From: a bacterium
GTDB taxonomy: Bacteria > Zhuqueibacterota > Zhuqueibacteria > Residuimicrobiales > Krinioviventaceae
Assembly (NCBI GenBank): GCA_963693055.1
Contig: OY843751.1
Location: 2,624,001 to 2,688,000 of the forward strand
Direction of reading: 5' to 3'
DNA: 64,000 bases
Numbering within the stretch: position 1 is the first letter of the stretch; each line of letters opens with the position of its first letter. Below the pieces are notes generated by a model. The model was given only the letters and a program-made list of their open reading frames with translations. It did not search any database and was not told the origin of the DNA. Shown in pieces: positions 45,822 through 59,759 of the stretch. The position numbers and the translations under genes were made by a program.

Positions 45822-46205
45822 ATGTCCGACTATAAACCAACCGATTCAGAATTAGAGATTCTAAAGTTATTGTGGGAAAAAAGTCCCAGAACTGTACGGG
45901 AAATTAACAATCTGTTAAATCAAGAAAAAAAAGTGGGGTATACTACAACTTTGAAAATAATGCAGATCATGTATCAAAAAGGTTACCTCACAAGGACAAA
46001 GCAAGGCAAAGTTCATTATTATACGGTTTCTATTGAGCAACAAAAAACCCGTCAGGATTTATTAGACAAGCTTGTAAAAACCGCATTTGATGGATCATCA
46101 TTTAAATTGGTAATGCAGGCATTGGGTAGTGGAACCCGCTCTAAAAATGAACTGGATAAAATTCGTCAGTACCTTGATCAACTCGAAGGAGAAAACAATG
46201 ATTAA
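45822..46205 (+). CDS. BlaI/MecI/CopY family transcriptional repressor
   Basis: PTDSELEILKLLW, GYTTTLKIMQIM, FDGSSFKLVMQAL. Confidence 0.95.
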   Translation: MSDYKPTDSELEILKLLWEKSPRTVREINNLLNQEKKVGYTTTLKIMQIMYQKGYLTRTKQGKVHYYTVSIEQQKTRQDLLDKLVKTAFDGSSFKLVMQALGSGTRSKNELDKIRQYLDQLEGENND

Positions 46206-46990
46206 TACGAGTTTTATATCAACTCCCGTTACTCATGCAATCGGCTTGGCCTTGATTCATTCTATCTGGCAGGGAATATTAATTGGATTTTTGGCTGGTA
46301 TTTTTTTGGTTTTTATTAAAAATGAACGTCCGGAAATTAAATACAATATAGCTATTTCAGCTATGTTTTTCATGTTTATCACTTTTGTTGTTACATTTAT
46401 TATTTCATTTTATAATACCCATCATACGTCACAAATAATAACTCAAACTGCTAAAGTCCAGGTTTTTAATTCAACTCAAAGCATTATTCCAATCACTCCG
46501 AATGCTTTCACAATATTATTGATAAATGTTGAACCTTTTTTACCAATAATAACTATGATATGGTTAGTTGGAGTGCTTGCTCATATATTACAAATTTCAA
46601 AAGATTTGTTAAGGGTTCACTACCTGAAAACACGAAATATAAAAAGTGTTAATCCTGAATTAGCCAAAGTTTTTAATTTAGTTGCAAATCAGATGCGTAT
46701 TTTGAAAAATTTTCATGTGTTTGAATCTTCCAAAGTTCGAATTCCCATGGTTATTGGTTATCTAAAACCCGTCATTTTACTGCCTGCTGGCGTATTCACA
46801 GGTTTTTCAACCAAACAAATAGAATCTATCATTGCACACGAGCTTGCTCATATATTGAGAAATGACTATTTGATAAACATTATAATTTCTTTTATTAAAC
46901 CTGTGTTTTTTTATCATCCGGTTTTTTGGTGGTTTGTATCGATCATTGAACAGGAAAGAGAAAAATGCTGTGACGATAGGGCAATAACTG

Positions 46991-48430
46991 GAGTTATTGT
47001 CAATAGTTGTGGATCAAAAAGCGTATCCATTTCATAAAAGTTAAGCTGCCAACTTAAACAATTCCTGATTTTCCGGTTCACCATTCACAAATTTTTCTCC
47101 TTTAATCACAAATGGTATCCACTTGTACCCTCTCAAACGCCGCCACCGTTTTTCCGCTTCTTTAGCCAGTTTAAAAACCATAGTCAAAGTCGCCTGACTT
47201 GAACCGCAGCCCTTTGTTCTCCGCGTCCTGAGTCTCACTGTAGCAAAGGTAGATTCAATGGGATTCGTGGTCCGGATATGCTGCCAATGTGAATCCGGGA
47301 AATCATAAAAAGTAAAAAGTTGATCATAATCTTTTACCAGACAATTAACAACTTTGGGATACTTGTCTTCATAAATTTTGATAAATCTATGATAAGCGAT
47401 TAACGCATTTTCTTTGGTCTCAGCCATATACATTTCATGAATAAGCGATTTGGCATTTGTCTGCGCACTTTTCGGTAGCTTATCCAATATGTTGGCTGTC
47501 TTGTGGACCCAGCAGCGCTGTTCACGAGACTCGGGATAAACTTGTGGCAAAGCTTTCCAAAAACCGAGGGCACCGTCTGCGATTGCCAGTTTCGGTCCCA
47601 TCTCAAGTCCCTGGTCCTTTAACTCCAACAGCAGTTCTTTCCAGCTCAATTCGCTTTCTCGAAAGCCTTCTTTGACCGCCAAAAGCTCTTTTCGCCCATA
47701 TTCGTCCGCTCCAATAATCACTAAAATACAAGGATTTACGCCTTTCAATCGAACATTGAAATAGACACCATCGGCCCAGATGTATACATAGTGTTTGCCG
47801 GACAGATCACGCCTGGCCCATTGCTTGTACTCTGACTCCCATTCTTCTTTCAAGCGCACAACCGTGTTGGCTGAAAGTCCTTTGACTTTATCTCCAAGTA
47901 TAGCCGACAATGCAGCCGGGAAGTCCTGTGTCGAAATGCCCTTCAAATAAAGGGCAGGTATCAGGTTATTCAGGCTGGGTGTCCGTCTCAGGTATTTGGG
48001 TAGTATCTCACTTGTAAAGCCTTCTACGCCATGTTCCTGCCGTAATTTCCTGTCATCCACTCGCGGCTGCCGGATCGTTATTGGACCTGAACTGGACAAT
48101 ATTGTGCGCTCCGGCATGGAACCATTGCGTACGGCCAGGCGGTGACCTTGTTCATCTCTGTGATTTTTATAGCGATCAAGGTATTCCTGAACTTCGTTTT
48201 CTATGGCTGCTGCCAATATTTGTTGCGCTCCATTTCGAATAATTTCATCCAAACTTTTATTGAATGTTGTGGTTTCTGCTTGCAGTTCTGACTTTGTTGT
48301 ATTACCTTTTTTCATAGCGTGTCCTTTTTGGTTTTATCTTTTTTCTTGGTCGAAAAAAAATACTTAAAAACTATAGGATACGCTTTTTTATTTATTTTTT
48401 CAAGTCATCCACAACATTAGAATATAACTC
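46991..48430 (-). mobile_element. IS256-family insertion sequence (1440 bp)
   Basis: Imperfect 24-bp TIRs GAGTTATtgtcaataGTTGTGGAT / GAGTTATattctaatGTTGTGGAT; 9-bp target duplication CAATAACTG at 46982-46990 and 48431-48439. Confidence 0.95.
47041..48315 (-). CDS. IS256 family transposase
   Basis: RNGS...PRV.DR, LYLKGIST, WADGVY, IADG, QRCWVHK, RTTNPIESTF. Confidence 0.96.
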   Translation of the reverse strand: MKKGNTTKSELQAETTTFNKSLDEIIRNGAQQILAAAIENEVQEYLDRYKNHRDEQGHRLAVRNGSMPERTILSSSGPITIRQPRVDDRKLRQEHGVEGFTSEILPKYLRRTPSLNNLIPALYLKGISTQDFPAALSAILGDKVKGLSANTVVRLKEEWESEYKQWARRDLSGKHYVYIWADGVYFNVRLKGVNPCILVIIGADEYGRKELLAVKEGFRESELSWKELLLELKDQGLEMGPKLAIADGALGFWKALPQVYPESREQRCWVHKTANILDKLPKSAQTNAKSLIHEMYMAETKENALIAYHRFIKIYEDKYPKVVNCLVKDYDQLFTFYDFPDSHWQHIRTTNPIESTFATVRLRTRRTKGCGSSQATLTMVFKLAKEAEKRWRRLRGYKWIPFVIKGEKFVNGEPENQELFKLAA

Positions 48431-48866
48431 CAATAACTGTTGTTTCTGATTCACTTTTGTACGCTCGCTCTCTGGAAAAATTGTATCAATTTAATTTAAC
48501 ATCTCCTTCCATTGCAATGACAGCTATTAAGAATAACAACCAGGTATTTAAACGGATAAAACGAATTACGAATCCTGTTGTAATGGAAAGTAACAGACTG
48601 GGAGAGACATTGCTGCTTACATTATTCATTATTGGTTTATGCATATTTTCTGCTAATGCTCAATCTGGAATTAATAATACCGATTCAACAAATCATTCAC
48701 AAAATGAAAACATCTCAGATTCACTATTACATAAAGATCTTTCTGAAACAATACCTGTGGAGAACAATGATAAATCAGAAAGCAATAATACTTGTAATGC
48801 TTATCTTTGAATTTGAGAAATGGGCCAAAATTATTAAATTAGATAAAACAGAACAAAGGAGGCCCA

Positions 48867-49172
48867 TTGAGTACCCGACAACGATTTACAGCCGAAGCCA
48901 AAGTACAGATACTACGTGAACATTTGGAAAATAATGTCAAGATATCCGAATTAGCTGAAAAATATAAAGTTCATCCTGGTGTGATCCAGCGATGGAAAAA
49001 AGAACTCTTTGAAAACGCACTTGATGGTTTTTCCGGCCAGCATAAAAATCGTAAAGATAAAACCCGCAAAGAAGAACAACTTGAGCATAAAGTGATCAAA
49101 ATGCAGGAAGTGATTACCGAGCTGTCAACAGAGGTGATTGATTTGCGAAAAAAGTATTTTGGGGCCCCCTGA
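48867..49172 (+). CDS. IS3-family transposase OrfA (HTH + coiled coil)
   Basis: RQRFTAEAKVQIL...ISELAEKYKVHPGVIQRWKK. Confidence 0.92.
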   Translation: MSTRQRFTAEAKVQILREHLENNVKISELAEKYKVHPGVIQRWKKELFENALDGFSGQHKNRKDKTRKEEQLEHKVIKMQEVITELSTEVIDLRKKYFGAP

Positions 49173-49191
49173 AAGATCGTTGGGTAGCCCC
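49148..49191 (+). promoter_or_regulatory. Programmed -1 ribosomal frameshift signal
   Basis: A_AAA_AAG at 49148-49154 in the OrfA frame; upstream GAGG at 49131; downstream GGGGC...GCCCC stem; a -1 shift enters the OrfB frame. Confidence 0.85.
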
Positions 49192-49246
49192 TGACATACG
49201 CGATGACATTATCACTACATTTGACCGGTTAAAAACACAAACCCAT

Positions 49247-50140
49247 GTGCCAGTTAACACCTTGCTCAACGCGGCAGGATTATCGTGGGCCAGGTACCAT
49301 GACTGGCAAAAACGATTTGGACAACCCAATAGGCACAACAGCGATACGCCGCGCGACTTTTGGCTTGAGCCGTGGGAAAAACAGGCGATAATTGATTACA
49401 AAAAAGATCACATGGAAACCGGATATAGACGTTTAACCTATGAGATGCTGGATAACGACATTGTTGCCGTCAGCCCGTCAACAAGCTACAGGATATTGCG
49501 TCTGGCAGGCTTGACAAGTCGTTGGAATAACAAGACCTTAGAGGTAAAACGGAAAGGATTCGTGCAGCCAAAGAAACCTCATGAGCACTGGCACATGGAC
49601 ATATCCTATGTCAACTTTCATGGATCACACCTGTTTTTGATCTCTGTACTTGACGGATATTCCCGCTTTATTGTGCACCATGAGCTCAGAACACATATGC
49701 AGGAATACGATGTGGAGATCGTACTTCAACGGGCTCTGGAAAAATATCCGGACAAGACACCAAGGATCATTTCAGATAATGGCACCCAGTTCATTGCCAA
49801 CGATTTTAAATCCTTTTTGAGATTGAACAATCTGACACATGTACGAACATCGGTCAATCATCCACAAGCAAATGGAAAACAGGAAGCATTCCACAAGACA
49901 ATCAAAAATGAATGTATTCGTGTTAAAAGCTTTCTGGGTTTGGAGGATGCGAGAAAAATAGTTGCTGAATATGTTCATGAATATAACCATAAACGACTGC
50001 ATAGCGGCATAAACTATATCGCTCCGTATGATATGTTATGTGGCCGGGCTGAAATCATTTTCAAAGAACGTGATTTGAAACTTGAACAAGCACGACAAAG
50101 ACGAAAGGAAAAGGCACAACTTGAACGAAAAGCAGCTTAG
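49247..50140 (+). CDS. IS3-family transposase OrfB (DDE integrase core); frame open from 49154
   Basis: GYRRL, WHMDISY, ISDNG.QF, PQANGKQE, YNHKRLHS. Confidence 0.95.
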   Translation: MPVNTLLNAAGLSWARYHDWQKRFGQPNRHNSDTPRDFWLEPWEKQAIIDYKKDHMETGYRRLTYEMLDNDIVAVSPSTSYRILRLAGLTSRWNNKTLEVKRKGFVQPKKPHEHWHMDISYVNFHGSHLFLISVLDGYSRFIVHHELRTHMQEYDVEIVLQRALEKYPDKTPRIISDNGTQFIANDFKSFLRLNNLTHVRTSVNHPQANGKQEAFHKTIKNECIRVKSFLGLEDARKIVAEYVHEYNHKRLHSGINYIAPYDMLCGRAEIIFKERDLKLEQARQRRKEKAQLERKAA

Positions 50141-50583
50141 AGTTTTTTTTCGAATCCCTTCTCACAAGTGTTGGAAGGGTGAGGAGAAAAAACTCGGACT
50201 ATAACTTATTTTAAAGTGGCCTTTTCTCAAATTTTCCTTGAACCATTACAGTATTCGGAACTAGAATCAATACAATTGATTTTGATCAATTACATGAAAA
50301 TATATTACTCATGCAACAGCATTTAGATTCTGTTATGGTTAATAGTAAAGATTATGAGGCACAATTATCAATTGTACAGGATAAATTAAACGATCCTGAA
50401 TTTATGAAGCAAATAGAACTTGCAATTGAAAACGATCTTCAAAATGTTAAAATAGACACTCAGGTATTAGAGGAGAAAATAAAATCCCTAAATGAAGAAA
50501 AAATTAAAGAAATAAACAAAGCATTAAAAGAACTGAATCAATCAGTTGAAAATCAAGATAATGACTAAAAATATATATTTTTT

Positions 50584-56538: not shown

Positions 56539-57093
56539 TCATTTAGGTACTGGATGAGCTATAGTTTGCATAGCTGCTGCAAAATCCATTTCTTTATATG
56601 TAGGACTTTCAGAATTGTGACATTTTTTACAAGTTTCTGCAGTTGGTTCTACAGCTCCTACTGCTGCAAAATCTTGTGTGCCATCATACATGGCTTTCAT
56701 AACTTTTAATGATTTATAAAGCGAACCCGGTCCATGACAAGCTTCACAACTAATACCTTCTTCTATTGTCAAGGAGGCTTCTTTAACAGATGCAGGTTCT
56801 TCATAAGCAGTTACATGACACTTTAAACACTTTGGTGATTCCTGAGGATTTCCTTCAACTCCCACTTTTTTAGCTGCTGCTTTTGCTTCTTCTGTAGCAA
56901 GCACTTCATATGCTTTTGAATGCGGACCTTCCATCCAAACTTTTTGTTGGTTACCGCGTTTAGCACTTTTGTGGCATATGTTACATTTTTTTTCACCAAT
57001 GTATTTTGCCTGGTCTTTTTGTGCTGATACATGAGTTGTCAATAGTGTGAGGGCAAACACAGCACCTAAAACAACAATTATCGCCTTTTTCAT
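56539..57093 (-). CDS. Tetraheme cytochrome c (c554-like), exported
   Basis: Signal peptide; four CxxCH motifs (CNICH, CLKCH, CEACH, CKKCH); YIG..KC..CH and CEACHGPGS motifs. Confidence 0.9.
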   Translation of the reverse strand: MKKAIIVVLGAVFALTLLTTHVSAQKDQAKYIGEKKCNICHKSAKRGNQQKVWMEGPHSKAYEVLATEEAKAAAKKVGVEGNPQESPKCLKCHVTAYEEPASVKEASLTIEEGISCEACHGPGSLYKSLKVMKAMYDGTQDFAAVGAVEPTAETCKKCHNSESPTYKEMDFAAAMQTIAHPVPK

Positions 57094-57295: not shown

Positions 57296-57457
57296 TATAT
57301 TGAATGTAATTAAAGTTGTTGAGACCACATTCATTTTTGGAGAAAACCATTGTTATATTTCGATTACAACATTCATTGGACATAATCAGCAATAAATGTG
57401 TTTCAATTTACAACGTACATTTGAATTGAATTAATCATTATAAATGAGGCTGTTGAA

Positions 57458-59263
57458 TTGTATAAGAAAATAATATTTATTCTGGTCGGCATTTCACTGG
57501 TCTTTATCGGTTGCTCAAACGATAAGGTACCTACGCCATCAACATCGCATCCTGAATCATGGACAAATGTTGGTAATGCAGATTTTCACGGAACCAAAGT
57601 TTTAACTTCAGGTCTTGTTTCTTGTAAATCATGCCATGGAAATGATTTTATGGGTGGTGATTCTAAAGTTTCATGTTACAGTTGTCATGAATCTTATCCG
57701 CATACCGATGTTTGGAATGTATTGGGATCAGATAATAATCATGGTGCCTTTGTAATTGACAACAATTGGGAACTTAATGCCTGTAGCAGATGTCATGGTA
57801 TGGATTATGAAGGTGGGAAAAGTGATATTTCTTGTTATTCCTGTCATGATTCTTATCCTCATTTTCCAACATGGACACTGTCTGAATCTGAACTGTTTCA
57901 TGGCAAGTATTTAAAAGCTCACGATTATACTGTTGGTAATTGTCAGAGTTGTCATGGACAGGATTATACTGGCGGTTCCAGCGAAACCTCTTGTTATCAA
58001 TGTCATGCCAATTATCCACATATGGATACCTGGATGGGTACAACCAATGCAAGCCATGGTTCTTTCATTCTTGCAGATGAAAACAATATTCAATCTTGTG
58101 AAACCTGCCATGGATCTGATTATGGCGGTGGTACCAGTGATGTTTCCTGTTATACCTGTCACCAAACATATCCTCACTTTGCATCCTGGAATGAACCCGA
58201 ATCTGATCAGTTTCATGGAAAATATGTAGAATCTGCAAATTGGAATGTTGAATCTTGTGAGTCCTGCCATGGTTATGATTATACCGGCGGAACTTCCAAT
58301 GTTTCCTGTTATACTTGTCATCAATCATTTCCACATAATGATAGCTGGCTAACAGAAACAGAAGATGGTCATGGTGCATTTATGAAAAATGCAAATTGGG
58401 CTGTAGAAAATTGTACAACATGTCATGGTGAAGATTTAGCAGGTGGTAGTAGTGAGGTATCCTGTTATACCTGTCATGAAACGTATCCGCATGATTCCGA
58501 GTGGATGAATATGGCTTCCAATGAATCTCATGGAAGTTTTGTAAAAGCCCAGGAATGGGATACACAATCCTGTCAAGCATGTCATGGCGAGGATCTGGCT
58601 GGTGGAACAAGTGACGTTTCCTGCTATACCTGTCATGAATCATACCCGCATGATGATACATGGTTAACTGCAACAGAAGAAGGGCATGGCGCATTTGTGA
58701 AAGCACTGGATTGGAACCTGGAAAGTTGTACAGCTTGCCATGGTGAAGATTATAAAGGAGGCAGCAGCGAGGTTTCCTGTTATACCTGTCACGAGTCTTA
58801 TCCACATCCTGAAAATCATGAATGGGTAGGCGGAACGGATGTGTCTCATGGTAAATATATTAAAACTCAATATTGGGATTTGTCTTCATGTCAGTTGTGT
58901 CACGGAGAGGACTATGCTGGTGGTTCAACAAACACCAGTTGTACAACTTGTCACTCGGGTGAACAAGGCCCGGAATCCTGTAATGTTTGCCATGGAAGTG
59001 GTTTTAATGCCGCACCTCCACAGGATTTAGCAGATCATTCTGAAACTACCTATTTGGGTGTTGGTGCACATCAGACACATATGGCAGTTTCTCCGTATTG
59101 TGAATTATGTCACCATCAACCTGAATCATTTGATGACCCGTTACACCTTGACGGGAATCTTCCCGCAGAAGTTAATGAAAATCTGCAATGGGATCGTGAA
59201 ACCGCAACCTGTGGTAATGTGTATTGTCACTCGGATGAAAATAGAGATTATACCTGGAATTGA
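57458..59263 (+). CDS. Multiheme cytochrome c lipoprotein (20 CxxCH + 1 CxxxxCH) with nine tandem two-heme repeats
   Basis: Lipobox FIGC; motifs counted in the translation; C-terminal CELCH...CGNVYCH of the CxxxxCH/CxxCH type. Confidence 0.93.
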   Translation: MYKKIIFILVGISLVFIGCSNDKVPTPSTSHPESWTNVGNADFHGTKVLTSGLVSCKSCHGNDFMGGDSKVSCYSCHESYPHTDVWNVLGSDNNHGAFVIDNNWELNACSRCHGMDYEGGKSDISCYSCHDSYPHFPTWTLSESELFHGKYLKAHDYTVGNCQSCHGQDYTGGSSETSCYQCHANYPHMDTWMGTTNASHGSFILADENNIQSCETCHGSDYGGGTSDVSCYTCHQTYPHFASWNEPESDQFHGKYVESANWNVESCESCHGYDYTGGTSNVSCYTCHQSFPHNDSWLTETEDGHGAFMKNANWAVENCTTCHGEDLAGGSSEVSCYTCHETYPHDSEWMNMASNESHGSFVKAQEWDTQSCQACHGEDLAGGTSDVSCYTCHESYPHDDTWLTATEEGHGAFVKALDWNLESCTACHGEDYKGGSSEVSCYTCHESYPHPENHEWVGGTDVSHGKYIKTQYWDLSSCQLCHGEDYAGGSTNTSCTTCHSGEQGPESCNVCHGSGFNAAPPQDLADHSETTYLGVGAHQTHMAVSPYCELCHHQPESFDDPLHLDGNLPAEVNENLQWDRETATCGNVYCHSDENRDYTWN

Positions 59264-59301: not shown

Positions 59302-59710
59302 ATTCCTATGACATTGTCGTCTTAATAACCCAAATGCTCATAAAAGGCAATTACATTTTTATTTGTTTTTCTAACCTGTAAATTAATTTTAGGACACCCC
59401 ATAGATTTAAGCAATTATTCTGCTGCTTGCATTAAGGCCTTACCGATACCTTGTTTCGGATGTGTAAGGGATACGGCAAGATAGTTGACCCAACCACGAT
59501 GACCTTCATAGCAAACCATTACTGAACCAGCCAAAACATCATTTATTACTGCTACTAGTATTCCTTGTGGATGATAAGCAATTTTCATATCTATGTCTTT
59601 ATCCGGATCATTCCAGGGAACGATCAATTCGCATTCCTTCCACAATTCAATAAGAGCATTTCTGTCATTTTCCTCATAGATTCTGATTTTAAATGGTTAT
59701 TATTCTTCAC
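59286..59710 (-). pseudogene. GNAT acetyltransferase (YpeA-like) pseudogene
   Basis: PWNDP..DI..K, YEGHRGWVNYLAV, GCPKINLQVR..N, MGKRL; in-frame TAA at 59415-59417 and 59322-59324; the SD-preceded GTG (59710) is 1 nt out of frame. Confidence 0.88.
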
Positions 59711-59722
59711 AATTGCTCCCTT

Positions 59723-59759
59723 AAAAAAAGCCGCATAATAATAAACTATTATACGGCTT
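59723..59759 (-). terminator. Terminator downstream of transaldolase
   Basis: A-tract-GCCGCATAATA...TATTATACGGCTT. Confidence 0.8.

Follow-up and report, generated by a model that had tools for sequence, protein, structure and literature searches.

Porin-cytochrome (Pcc) systems are described as a porin of 18-22 strands, a periplasmic cytochrome with 5-14 hemes, and an outer-membrane cytochrome that often carries an atypical CX3-15CH heme motif (PMC4245776). In the Geobacter cluster ombB-omaB-omcB, the genes follow each other as porin, periplasmic multiheme cytochrome, and outer lipoprotein cytochrome. Another cluster, listed in 2014, is that of Ignavibacterium album (IALB_1839, IALB_1838, and IALB_1837), which encodes a porin, a 400-aa 14-heme cytochrome, and an outer cytochrome with an atypical motif (PMC4245776). 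Fe(III) and Mn(IV) oxides reportedly failed to support growth of I. album (PMC4245776), so that mineral reduction is not implied for a related cluster. Shewanella MtrCAB shares the same logic of a barrel, an inserted multiheme cytochrome, and a lipoprotein cytochrome. GSU1996 is built of c7 modules with three hemes each. It is described as a dodecaheme c7-repeat wire, and modular growth of multiheme cytochromes is already known (PMC11492766). Variable heme number among homologues was flagged as little studied by Arbour et al. (PMC7399161, Discussion).

The phylum KSB1 is the same as Zhuqueibacterota (PMC11683472). Pcc clusters in KSB1 are mentioned in PMC13264449, citing PMC10732223, and iron reductase genes are reported in four KSB1 genomes (PMC10732223). 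The preliminary description of the DNA studied here had called the lineage not established for extracellular electron transfer, which holds for experiments but not for reports made from genomes (PMC13264449). The porin-cytochrome logic and its presence in KSB1 are already known. What is new is an unmodelled two-heme repeat, stepwise length variation of the proteins filling one orthologous slot, and a selenocytochrome partner that is probably new. The repeat is not described in the passages of PMC13264449 and PMC10732223 that deal with KSB1, nor in the open-access literature searched; the supplements of PMC4245776 and PMC10732223 may list its genes.

The window analysed is a stretch of 64,000 nucleotides from a genome (G000) placed in KSB1 by the name given to a protein of a same-family genome. 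It encodes a lipoprotein with 21 heme motifs, and this repeat protein is predicted, with a probability of about 0.6, to be the outer-membrane, probably surface-facing lipoprotein cytochrome of a porin-cytochrome electron conduit. Its apparent membership in a porin-cytochrome gene cluster, which was absent from the preliminary description, narrows the protein's role. The features of the gene and of its divergent neighbour are as follows.

56539..57093, minus strand: divergent gene for a 184-aa secreted tetraheme c554-like cytochrome (PF13435, 68.6 bits)
57458..59263, plus strand: gene for the 21-heme repeat lipoprotein, 601 aa, with a TTG start and GAGG at 57446-57449
57458..57514, plus strand: lipoprotein signal peptide with lipobox FIG-C19 and mature N-terminus CSNDKVPT, read from the sequence (C19 is invariant in a 64-row alignment)
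57548..57700, plus strand: unit 1 (aa 31-81), N-terminal two-heme unit, conserved in position; its best neighbours are unit 1 of other proteins (65-73%)
57701..58804, plus strand: units 2-8 (aa 82-449), the expandable middle, with the pattern H-x3-W-x6/8-HG-x12-CxxCHG-xD-x-GG-xS-xVS-CxxCH-xx-YP
58805..58966, plus strand: unit 9 (aa 450-503), the final two-heme unit before the cap
58967..59260, plus strand: C-terminal three-heme cap (CNVCH, CELCH, CGNVYCH) with conserved His538, His541, and His563

The GAGG sits 8 nt 5' of the start codon. The protein has 20 CxxCH motifs and one CxxxxCH (aa 585), far above its own shuffles (2000 shuffles; CxxCH mean 0.23, maximum 3). This count and the lipobox agree with the preliminary description, which had reported a lipoprotein signal, 18 repeat motifs plus three in the cap, and about 28 residues per heme. 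It had also given nine units of 52-54 aa. There are nine, covering aa 31-503, with lengths of 51, 53, 53, 52, 53, 52, 53, 52, and 54 aa, unit 1 thus being shorter than the range given; the cap adds 98 aa. Pairwise identity among the units is 38-71%. The closest pair is units 6 and 8 (71% identity, 74% at the DNA level), a likeness that reads as the signature of a two-unit duplication.

The 46 histidines comprise 21 in heme motifs, 18 paired unit histidines, three cap histidines, and four unconserved ones. Exactly two extra histidines per unit, as first proposed, are found in seven of the nine units, and units 3 and 9 carry three. The three cap histidines are invariant across six short relatives. 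With 18 unit and three cap histidines, one distal ligand is available for each of the 21 hemes. All of the hemes are therefore expected to be bis-His, leaving no catalytic site. The host genome has CcmA/B/C/F-like, CcmE, and CcsA-like genes, so the proposal of a multiheme protein does not fail for lack of cytochrome c maturation genes.

When the protein alone was used to search for related loci, it returned one near-identical locus and one signal-peptide match only; a protein of the same length and 94% identity is found in a genome of the same genus. A wider protein search gave 614 matches at E up to 0.001, and the best 120 of these 614 were analysed as homologues. A profile of two units matched 1389, 739, and 255 cluster representatives at 1e-3, 1e-10, and 1e-30, respectively. 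Family members are named from KSB1, Calditrichota, Ignavibacteria, Marinimicrobia, Glassbacteria, Deltaproteobacteria, and Bdellovibrionota. The 120 homologues listed contain 899 units, 723 of them with both motifs inside the aligned stretch. Exactly two histidines before the motifs and none between them are found in 607 of these 723 full units, bearing out the two-heme unit with two spare histidines, and the two motifs are spaced by 17 or 18 residues in 707. Strong acidity, on the other hand, was noted early and is true of the window protein (net charge -66, or -11.3 per 100 aa) but is rejected as a family property, the median of the 120 homologues listed being -3.7 per 100 aa.

Related loci were compared as well. 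Sixty loci were fetched, chosen by match, and 55 of them hold the repeat gene. The number of units ranges from 2 to 14 among the 120 homologue matches listed, from 3 to 17 among 117 further cluster representatives, and from 1 to 14 across the 55 loci. It spans 2 to 10 inside a single taxonomic family. Homologues differ in unit count by whole units, in line with the early suggestion that length is set by repeat number. Some short members, P0303 and P0263 among them, were excluded because they lack part of the N-terminus. In seven of eight hand-picked pairs, the two proteins differ by an internal gap of 101-110 aa holding four CxxCH motifs, that is, two units; four of these pairs are 72-88% identical, and one has an additional 56-aa gap. 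The eighth pair, from the same genus, has no internal gap. An even unit number is found in 21 of 26 short-cap members, and the window protein has an odd count (nine). Together with the closeness of units 6 and 8, the two-unit gaps and even counts indicate that duplication or loss of two units (four hemes) is the usual step. Repeat number thus appears to vary by clean whole-unit changes, often four hemes at once. A second level of modularity is seen at three loci (L059:8554-10848, L060:8697-11621, and L075:8711-11182), where the block of units plus cap is itself repeated two to four times. A further two-heme unit of the host genome, single and degenerate, is preceded by a lipobox-like LAAC stretch and lacks a clear start and signal peptide (L005:8607-8801, equal to G000:C1:6063606-6063800, plus strand); similar frames of 86-97 aa occur in five relatives.

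No dedicated family model or solved relative of the repeat was found in Pfam, NCBIfam, or the PDB comparison, in keeping with the preliminary description, which recognised no such repeat in MtrA, OmcS, or OmcZ. In Pfam, the window protein matches generic multiheme models only, PF14522 (78.2 bits, above its cut-off) and three other generic ones. NCBIfam has nothing above cut-off; its matches to cytochrome c550/c551, DnaJ, and ExtN/ExtO lie far under cut-off, span only the CHGxDxxGG hairpin, and were rejected. PDB sequence searches with the repeat protein gave weak generic multiheme matches only. The cap had been assigned to the CxxxxCH/CxxCH type. It is a shortened relative of this domain, but it stays below the cut-offs of both TIGR01904 (18.9 of 27 bits) and PF09698 (E=0.039, 15.1 of 21.7 bits), and the repeats lie outside these models; family members with a long cap do exceed the TIGR01904 cut-off (32.7-44.8 bits). 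A heme-free structure model has regular units (pLDDT 76.1) and a pTM of 0.32, and leaves elongated versus globular shape undecided. Fold searches with it returned one Foldseek row at E=7.4 and signal-helix matches only in VIA-align (Z up to 2.4), a result that speaks for neither a new nor a known fold. The filament subunits OmcS, OmcE, and OmcZ are absent among the matches listed in these fold searches and in the PDB sequence searches. The ESM Atlas gave generic c7/c3 clusters at 0.86-0.90, which are leads only.

In most relatives, the repeat gene has the same two neighbours. The exact order barrel, 12/14-heme cytochrome, repeat lipoprotein is found in 37 of the 55 loci, which is the gene order of ombB-omaB-omcB. 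The barrel is an unannotated 395-440-aa protein in the phylum genomes. An AlphaFold model of the G000 barrel has 22 strands (pLDDT 81.7, pTM 0.70), and the fold matches listed for it are outer-membrane barrels without exception. The very next gene encodes a cytochrome with a signal peptide and 12 CxxCH motifs (11-14 in relatives). Thus the 22 strands fall within the 18-22 of Pcc porins, and the 12 hemes next to the porin fall within the 5-14 of their periplasmic cytochromes (PMC4245776). The atypical heme motif of Pcc outer cytochromes is also present in the window protein, which has 20 typical motifs against the 1-15 reported in PMC4245776; tandem arrays of a 52-aa two-heme unit in 1-17 copies are not described in the parts of that paper on Pcc clusters. 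The likeness seen here to the IALB and Omb/Oma/Omc proteins is one of gene order and anatomy. In MtrCAB/MtoAB, by comparison, the barrel has 28 strands (PMC4245776) and MtrA and MtrC are decahemes, whereas G000 has 22 strands, 12 and 21 hemes, and no fixed decaheme MtrC fold. The DmsE model TIGR03508 scores 18.1 against a cut-off of 192.2 bits.

The 12-heme partner contains two c7-like domains (GSU1996-type, 3ov0, E=5e-15), and its C-terminal units distantly resemble the repeat unit (hhalign 95.9%, E=6e-9). Note that it is this partner which matches GSU1996-type c7 domains. The window protein resembles GSU1996 in making a chain by concatenating a small heme module, but its unit holds two hemes per 51-54 aa, its copy number is widely variable, and it is a lipoprotein. 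In class-level loci the partner has 14 hemes and 392-422 aa, like IALB_1838, and homologues of about 400 aa are named from Ignavibacteria, Kryptonia, and Marinimicrobia. The homology searches returned no named Geobacter or I. album sequence. The Ignavibacteria-named homologues of the 14-heme partner suggest that this conduit cluster is probably related to the I. album cluster. A complex prediction of barrel, 12-heme cytochrome, and 2-unit lipoprotein (L047) scored 0.00 against a mark of 0.32 and weighs neither way.

Across 121 genomes of the phylum, the repeat gene is present in 63 and the barrel in 68. Both are present in 61, the repeat gene only in two, the barrel only in seven, and neither in 51. 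These counts are given without a statistic, since related genomes are not independent. Within the same family and order, 24 of 41 genomes have the repeat gene. The two genes lie within 10 kb of each other in 52 of the 61 genomes having both. In G000, in contrast, the barrel and 12-heme genes (G000:C1:1145580-1147643) are 1.54 Mb away from the window gene, which stands alone, divergent from the c554-like tetraheme gene. In G001 too, the repeat gene is unlinked to the barrel, and this counts against the conduit reading. No repeat gene follows the barrel/12-heme pair in G000, and the genome has no multi-unit copy besides the window gene, which would therefore still fill the conduit slot despite the separation. 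Fifteen of the 55 relative loci carry the tetraheme gene, and in eight it lies next to the repeat gene. In four (L041, L048, L083, and L086) it is divergent from the row barrel, 12-heme cytochrome, repeat lipoprotein, which suggests that the G000 layout may have arisen by the two middle genes moving away.

The separation allows another reading, in which the long versions off the barrel operon are membrane-tethered heme capacitors or redox buffers for the c554-like neighbour and not directional wires. Besides the 9-unit genes of G000 and G001, genes with 10, 12, and 14 units also lie away from the barrel gene. Where the gene has 12 or 14 units, the genome retains a separate 1-2-unit copy in the barrel operon, and the apparent bis-His ligation of all hemes would suit storage. 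There is no barrel within the fetched stretch in 10 of the 55 loci; the 10-, 12-, and 14-unit members, the longest fetched, are without one, and the long forms may thus work independently of the conduit. A detached store is nevertheless quite unlikely for the window protein: a 9-unit member stands directly in the barrel triplet (L073), the barrel operon of G000 has no other multi-unit copy available, and its tetraheme-plus-repeat pair resembles the four loci above minus their middle genes.

The gene downstream of the repeat gene (window 59415-59723, minus strand) is a 76-aa piece, apparently broken, of what is a 141-aa frame in the related locus L010. Elsewhere in the window (46129-50568), a 661-aa single frame of L010 is split here by insertion-sequence-like elements at 47041-48315 and 48867-50140; the genes of this region are presumably BlaR1-like and transposase genes. 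A scan for promoters and terminators gave a value close to that of shuffled DNA (18 vs 13.0 +/- 3.6). Against consensus motifs, FNR- and CRP-like matches have two mismatches at best, in AT-rich DNA, and no sigma-54 or Fur site was found. None of the sequencing runs listed is an RNA dataset carrying the gene.

Which side of the membrane the lipoprotein faces is a further point. In Bacteroidetes, surface export is signalled by K-(D/E)2 or Q-A-(D/E)2 after the lipidated cysteine (PMC5080379). This signal, which may not apply to KSB1, is absent from the window protein and present in 2 of 117 homologues, so there is no sequence mark of surface exposure. It is conceivable, if unlikely, that the lipoprotein faces the periplasm, anchored in the inner leaflet of the outer membrane (or in the inner membrane), and bridges quinol oxidases to the barrel-inserted 12-heme cytochrome, with the repeat number tracking periplasm width. 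Some published Pcc clusters are without an outer cytochrome (PMC4245776), and the 12/14-heme partner alone has hemes enough to cross the membrane. The repeat gene also often adjoins genes of the ImcH-like and c554-like tetraheme types. But 2 to 10 repeats within one family would seem to exceed any plausible variation in periplasm width. In E. coli lipoproteins, Asp at position +2 is the rule for retention in the inner membrane. In 82 of 117 homologues, the lipidated cysteine is followed by Ser or Ala and not by Asp. Also, the place after the barrel and periplasmic cytochrome and the CxxxxCH/CxxCH cap match Pcc outer cytochromes (PMC4245776), as the preferred assignment to the outer side would have it.

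A candidate for the inner-membrane end of the conduit is an ImcH-like protein of G000 (L009:13186-14751, equal to G000:C1:5911185-5912750, minus strand). It has 3 TM segments, a NapC/NirT region, and seven heme motifs, the first of which is CxxxCH, matching the description of ImcH in PMC4251993. Close orthologues (61% or more) are found in 16 of 40 relatives; 15 of these have the repeat gene, in several cases no more than about 10 kb away. Of the 23 relatives that carry the repeat gene, eight are without a close orthologue, a point against the conduit reading. Near the G000 gene are two multiheme/cytochrome b fusion genes (19 and 7 hemes).

Upstream of the G000 barrel lie a gene for a double-rhodanese lipoprotein and, beside it, the following feature.

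L006:7078-8418, equal to G000:C1:1143077-1144417, plus strand: 10-heme lipoprotein with an in-frame TGA (GEG-U-GG)

The TGA is at the same place in six of seven loci and replaced by Cys in the seventh, one TGA is present in 27 of 35 phylum matches, and SelA is encoded in G000. This conserved TGA/Cys site and SelA make it likely that the 10-heme lipoprotein is a selenoprotein, probably of a new family. SECIS-like hairpins after the TGA have z from -0.3 to -2.15 in six loci. No NCBIfam family matches it at E 0.01, and it is absent from the cytochrome and rhodanese rows of the 2026 selenoproteome table (PMC13188914). The barrel operon of G000 shares several ingredients with Geobacter extHIJKLM and MccSep (PMC5877670, PMC13510729): a rhodanese lipoprotein, a porin, a selenocysteine multiheme cytochrome, and a 12-heme cytochrome. 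MccSep/ExtKL, however, has five hemes and Sec325 in a C-terminal Ig-like domain, whereas the G000 protein has 10 CxxCH motifs, a lipobox, and Sec80 after heme 1; its identification as MccSep was therefore rejected (PMC13510729). The selenoenzyme of the Geobacter ext cluster reduces polysulfide (PMC5877670). Selenocytochrome and rhodanese genes in the conduit operon hint at sulfur acceptors. The selenocytochrome occurs in 16 of the 55 loci and in 31 of 121 genomes, roughly half the frequency of the conduit core, and is an accessory to the conduit.

About 2 kb from the G000 barrel operon lies a gene for cytochrome bd oxidase. This neighbour would suit the same conduit run inwards, the lipoprotein taking electrons from an external donor (Fe(II), sulfide minerals, or a partner cell) for oxygen or nitrate respiration. 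Porin-cytochrome conduits can work both ways, and iron-oxidase-like genes are reported in KSB1 genomes (PMC9769843, PMC10732223). Even so, inward flow seems very unlikely here: the inner-membrane partner linked to it is similar to ImcH, a cytochrome of outward reduction in Geobacter (PMC4251993), and the outer cytochrome tends to be missing from oxidiser-type clusters (PMC4245776).

Other multiheme genes were seen around these loci. A 9-heme cytochrome of about 925 aa with a T9SS-type C-terminal sorting domain (L035:13932-16703 and similar loci) is often near the conduit cluster. At L008:7824-14069, genes for proteins of 20, 28, and 10 hemes stand in a row, followed by an unannotated 532-aa protein. 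A second candidate conduit of G000 (L007:6137-11384) consists of a 49-heme cytochrome followed by a 557-aa protein without a Pfam match, a barrel-like neighbour. This second conduit could do the exporting, which counts against the role proposed for the window protein.

For an outward conduit with the repeat protein as its outer cytochrome, the steps would be as follows. Ccm would attach the hemes, all bis-His and non-catalytic. Electrons would pass from the quinol pool to the ImcH-like inner-membrane cytochrome and then to the 12-heme cytochrome sitting in the 22-strand barrel. The lipid-anchored repeat protein would accept them at the outer face and relay them along its heme chain, whose length and heme capacity would be set by the number of middle units, often in four-heme steps. 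A heme chain extends by about 1 nm per heme, and the 21-heme chain, if straight, would reach up to about 20 nm. The final acceptor would lie outside the cell and could be a mineral, humic matter, a partner cell, or, through the selenocytochrome-rhodanese pair, sulfur.

So far, Pcc outer cytochromes have been treated as unrelated proteins of fixed size. Here one orthologous slot holds, in the loci fetched, proteins of 1 to 14 units of identical type with near-identical partners, and the slot offers a natural series in which to ask whether heme number governs reach, rate, or storage. For about half of the sampled KSB1 genomes (63 of 121), it gives a candidate, testable route of extracellular electron exchange. 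The two-heme module, for which no solved relative was found, is accompanied by a probable new selenoprotein family to which the cluster also points. A wider and rather doubtful proposal is that these proteins may be surface electron antennae throughout FCB, with a reach set by the 52-residue two-heme block, mostly in four-heme steps (1-17 units), and mounted on a conduit of 22 strands; in roughly half of the hosts they would feed the undescribed 10-heme selenocytochrome and rhodanese, which would reduce extracellular sulfur at the cell surface. If this is true, the two-heme unit would offer a natural module from which to build heme wires of chosen length.
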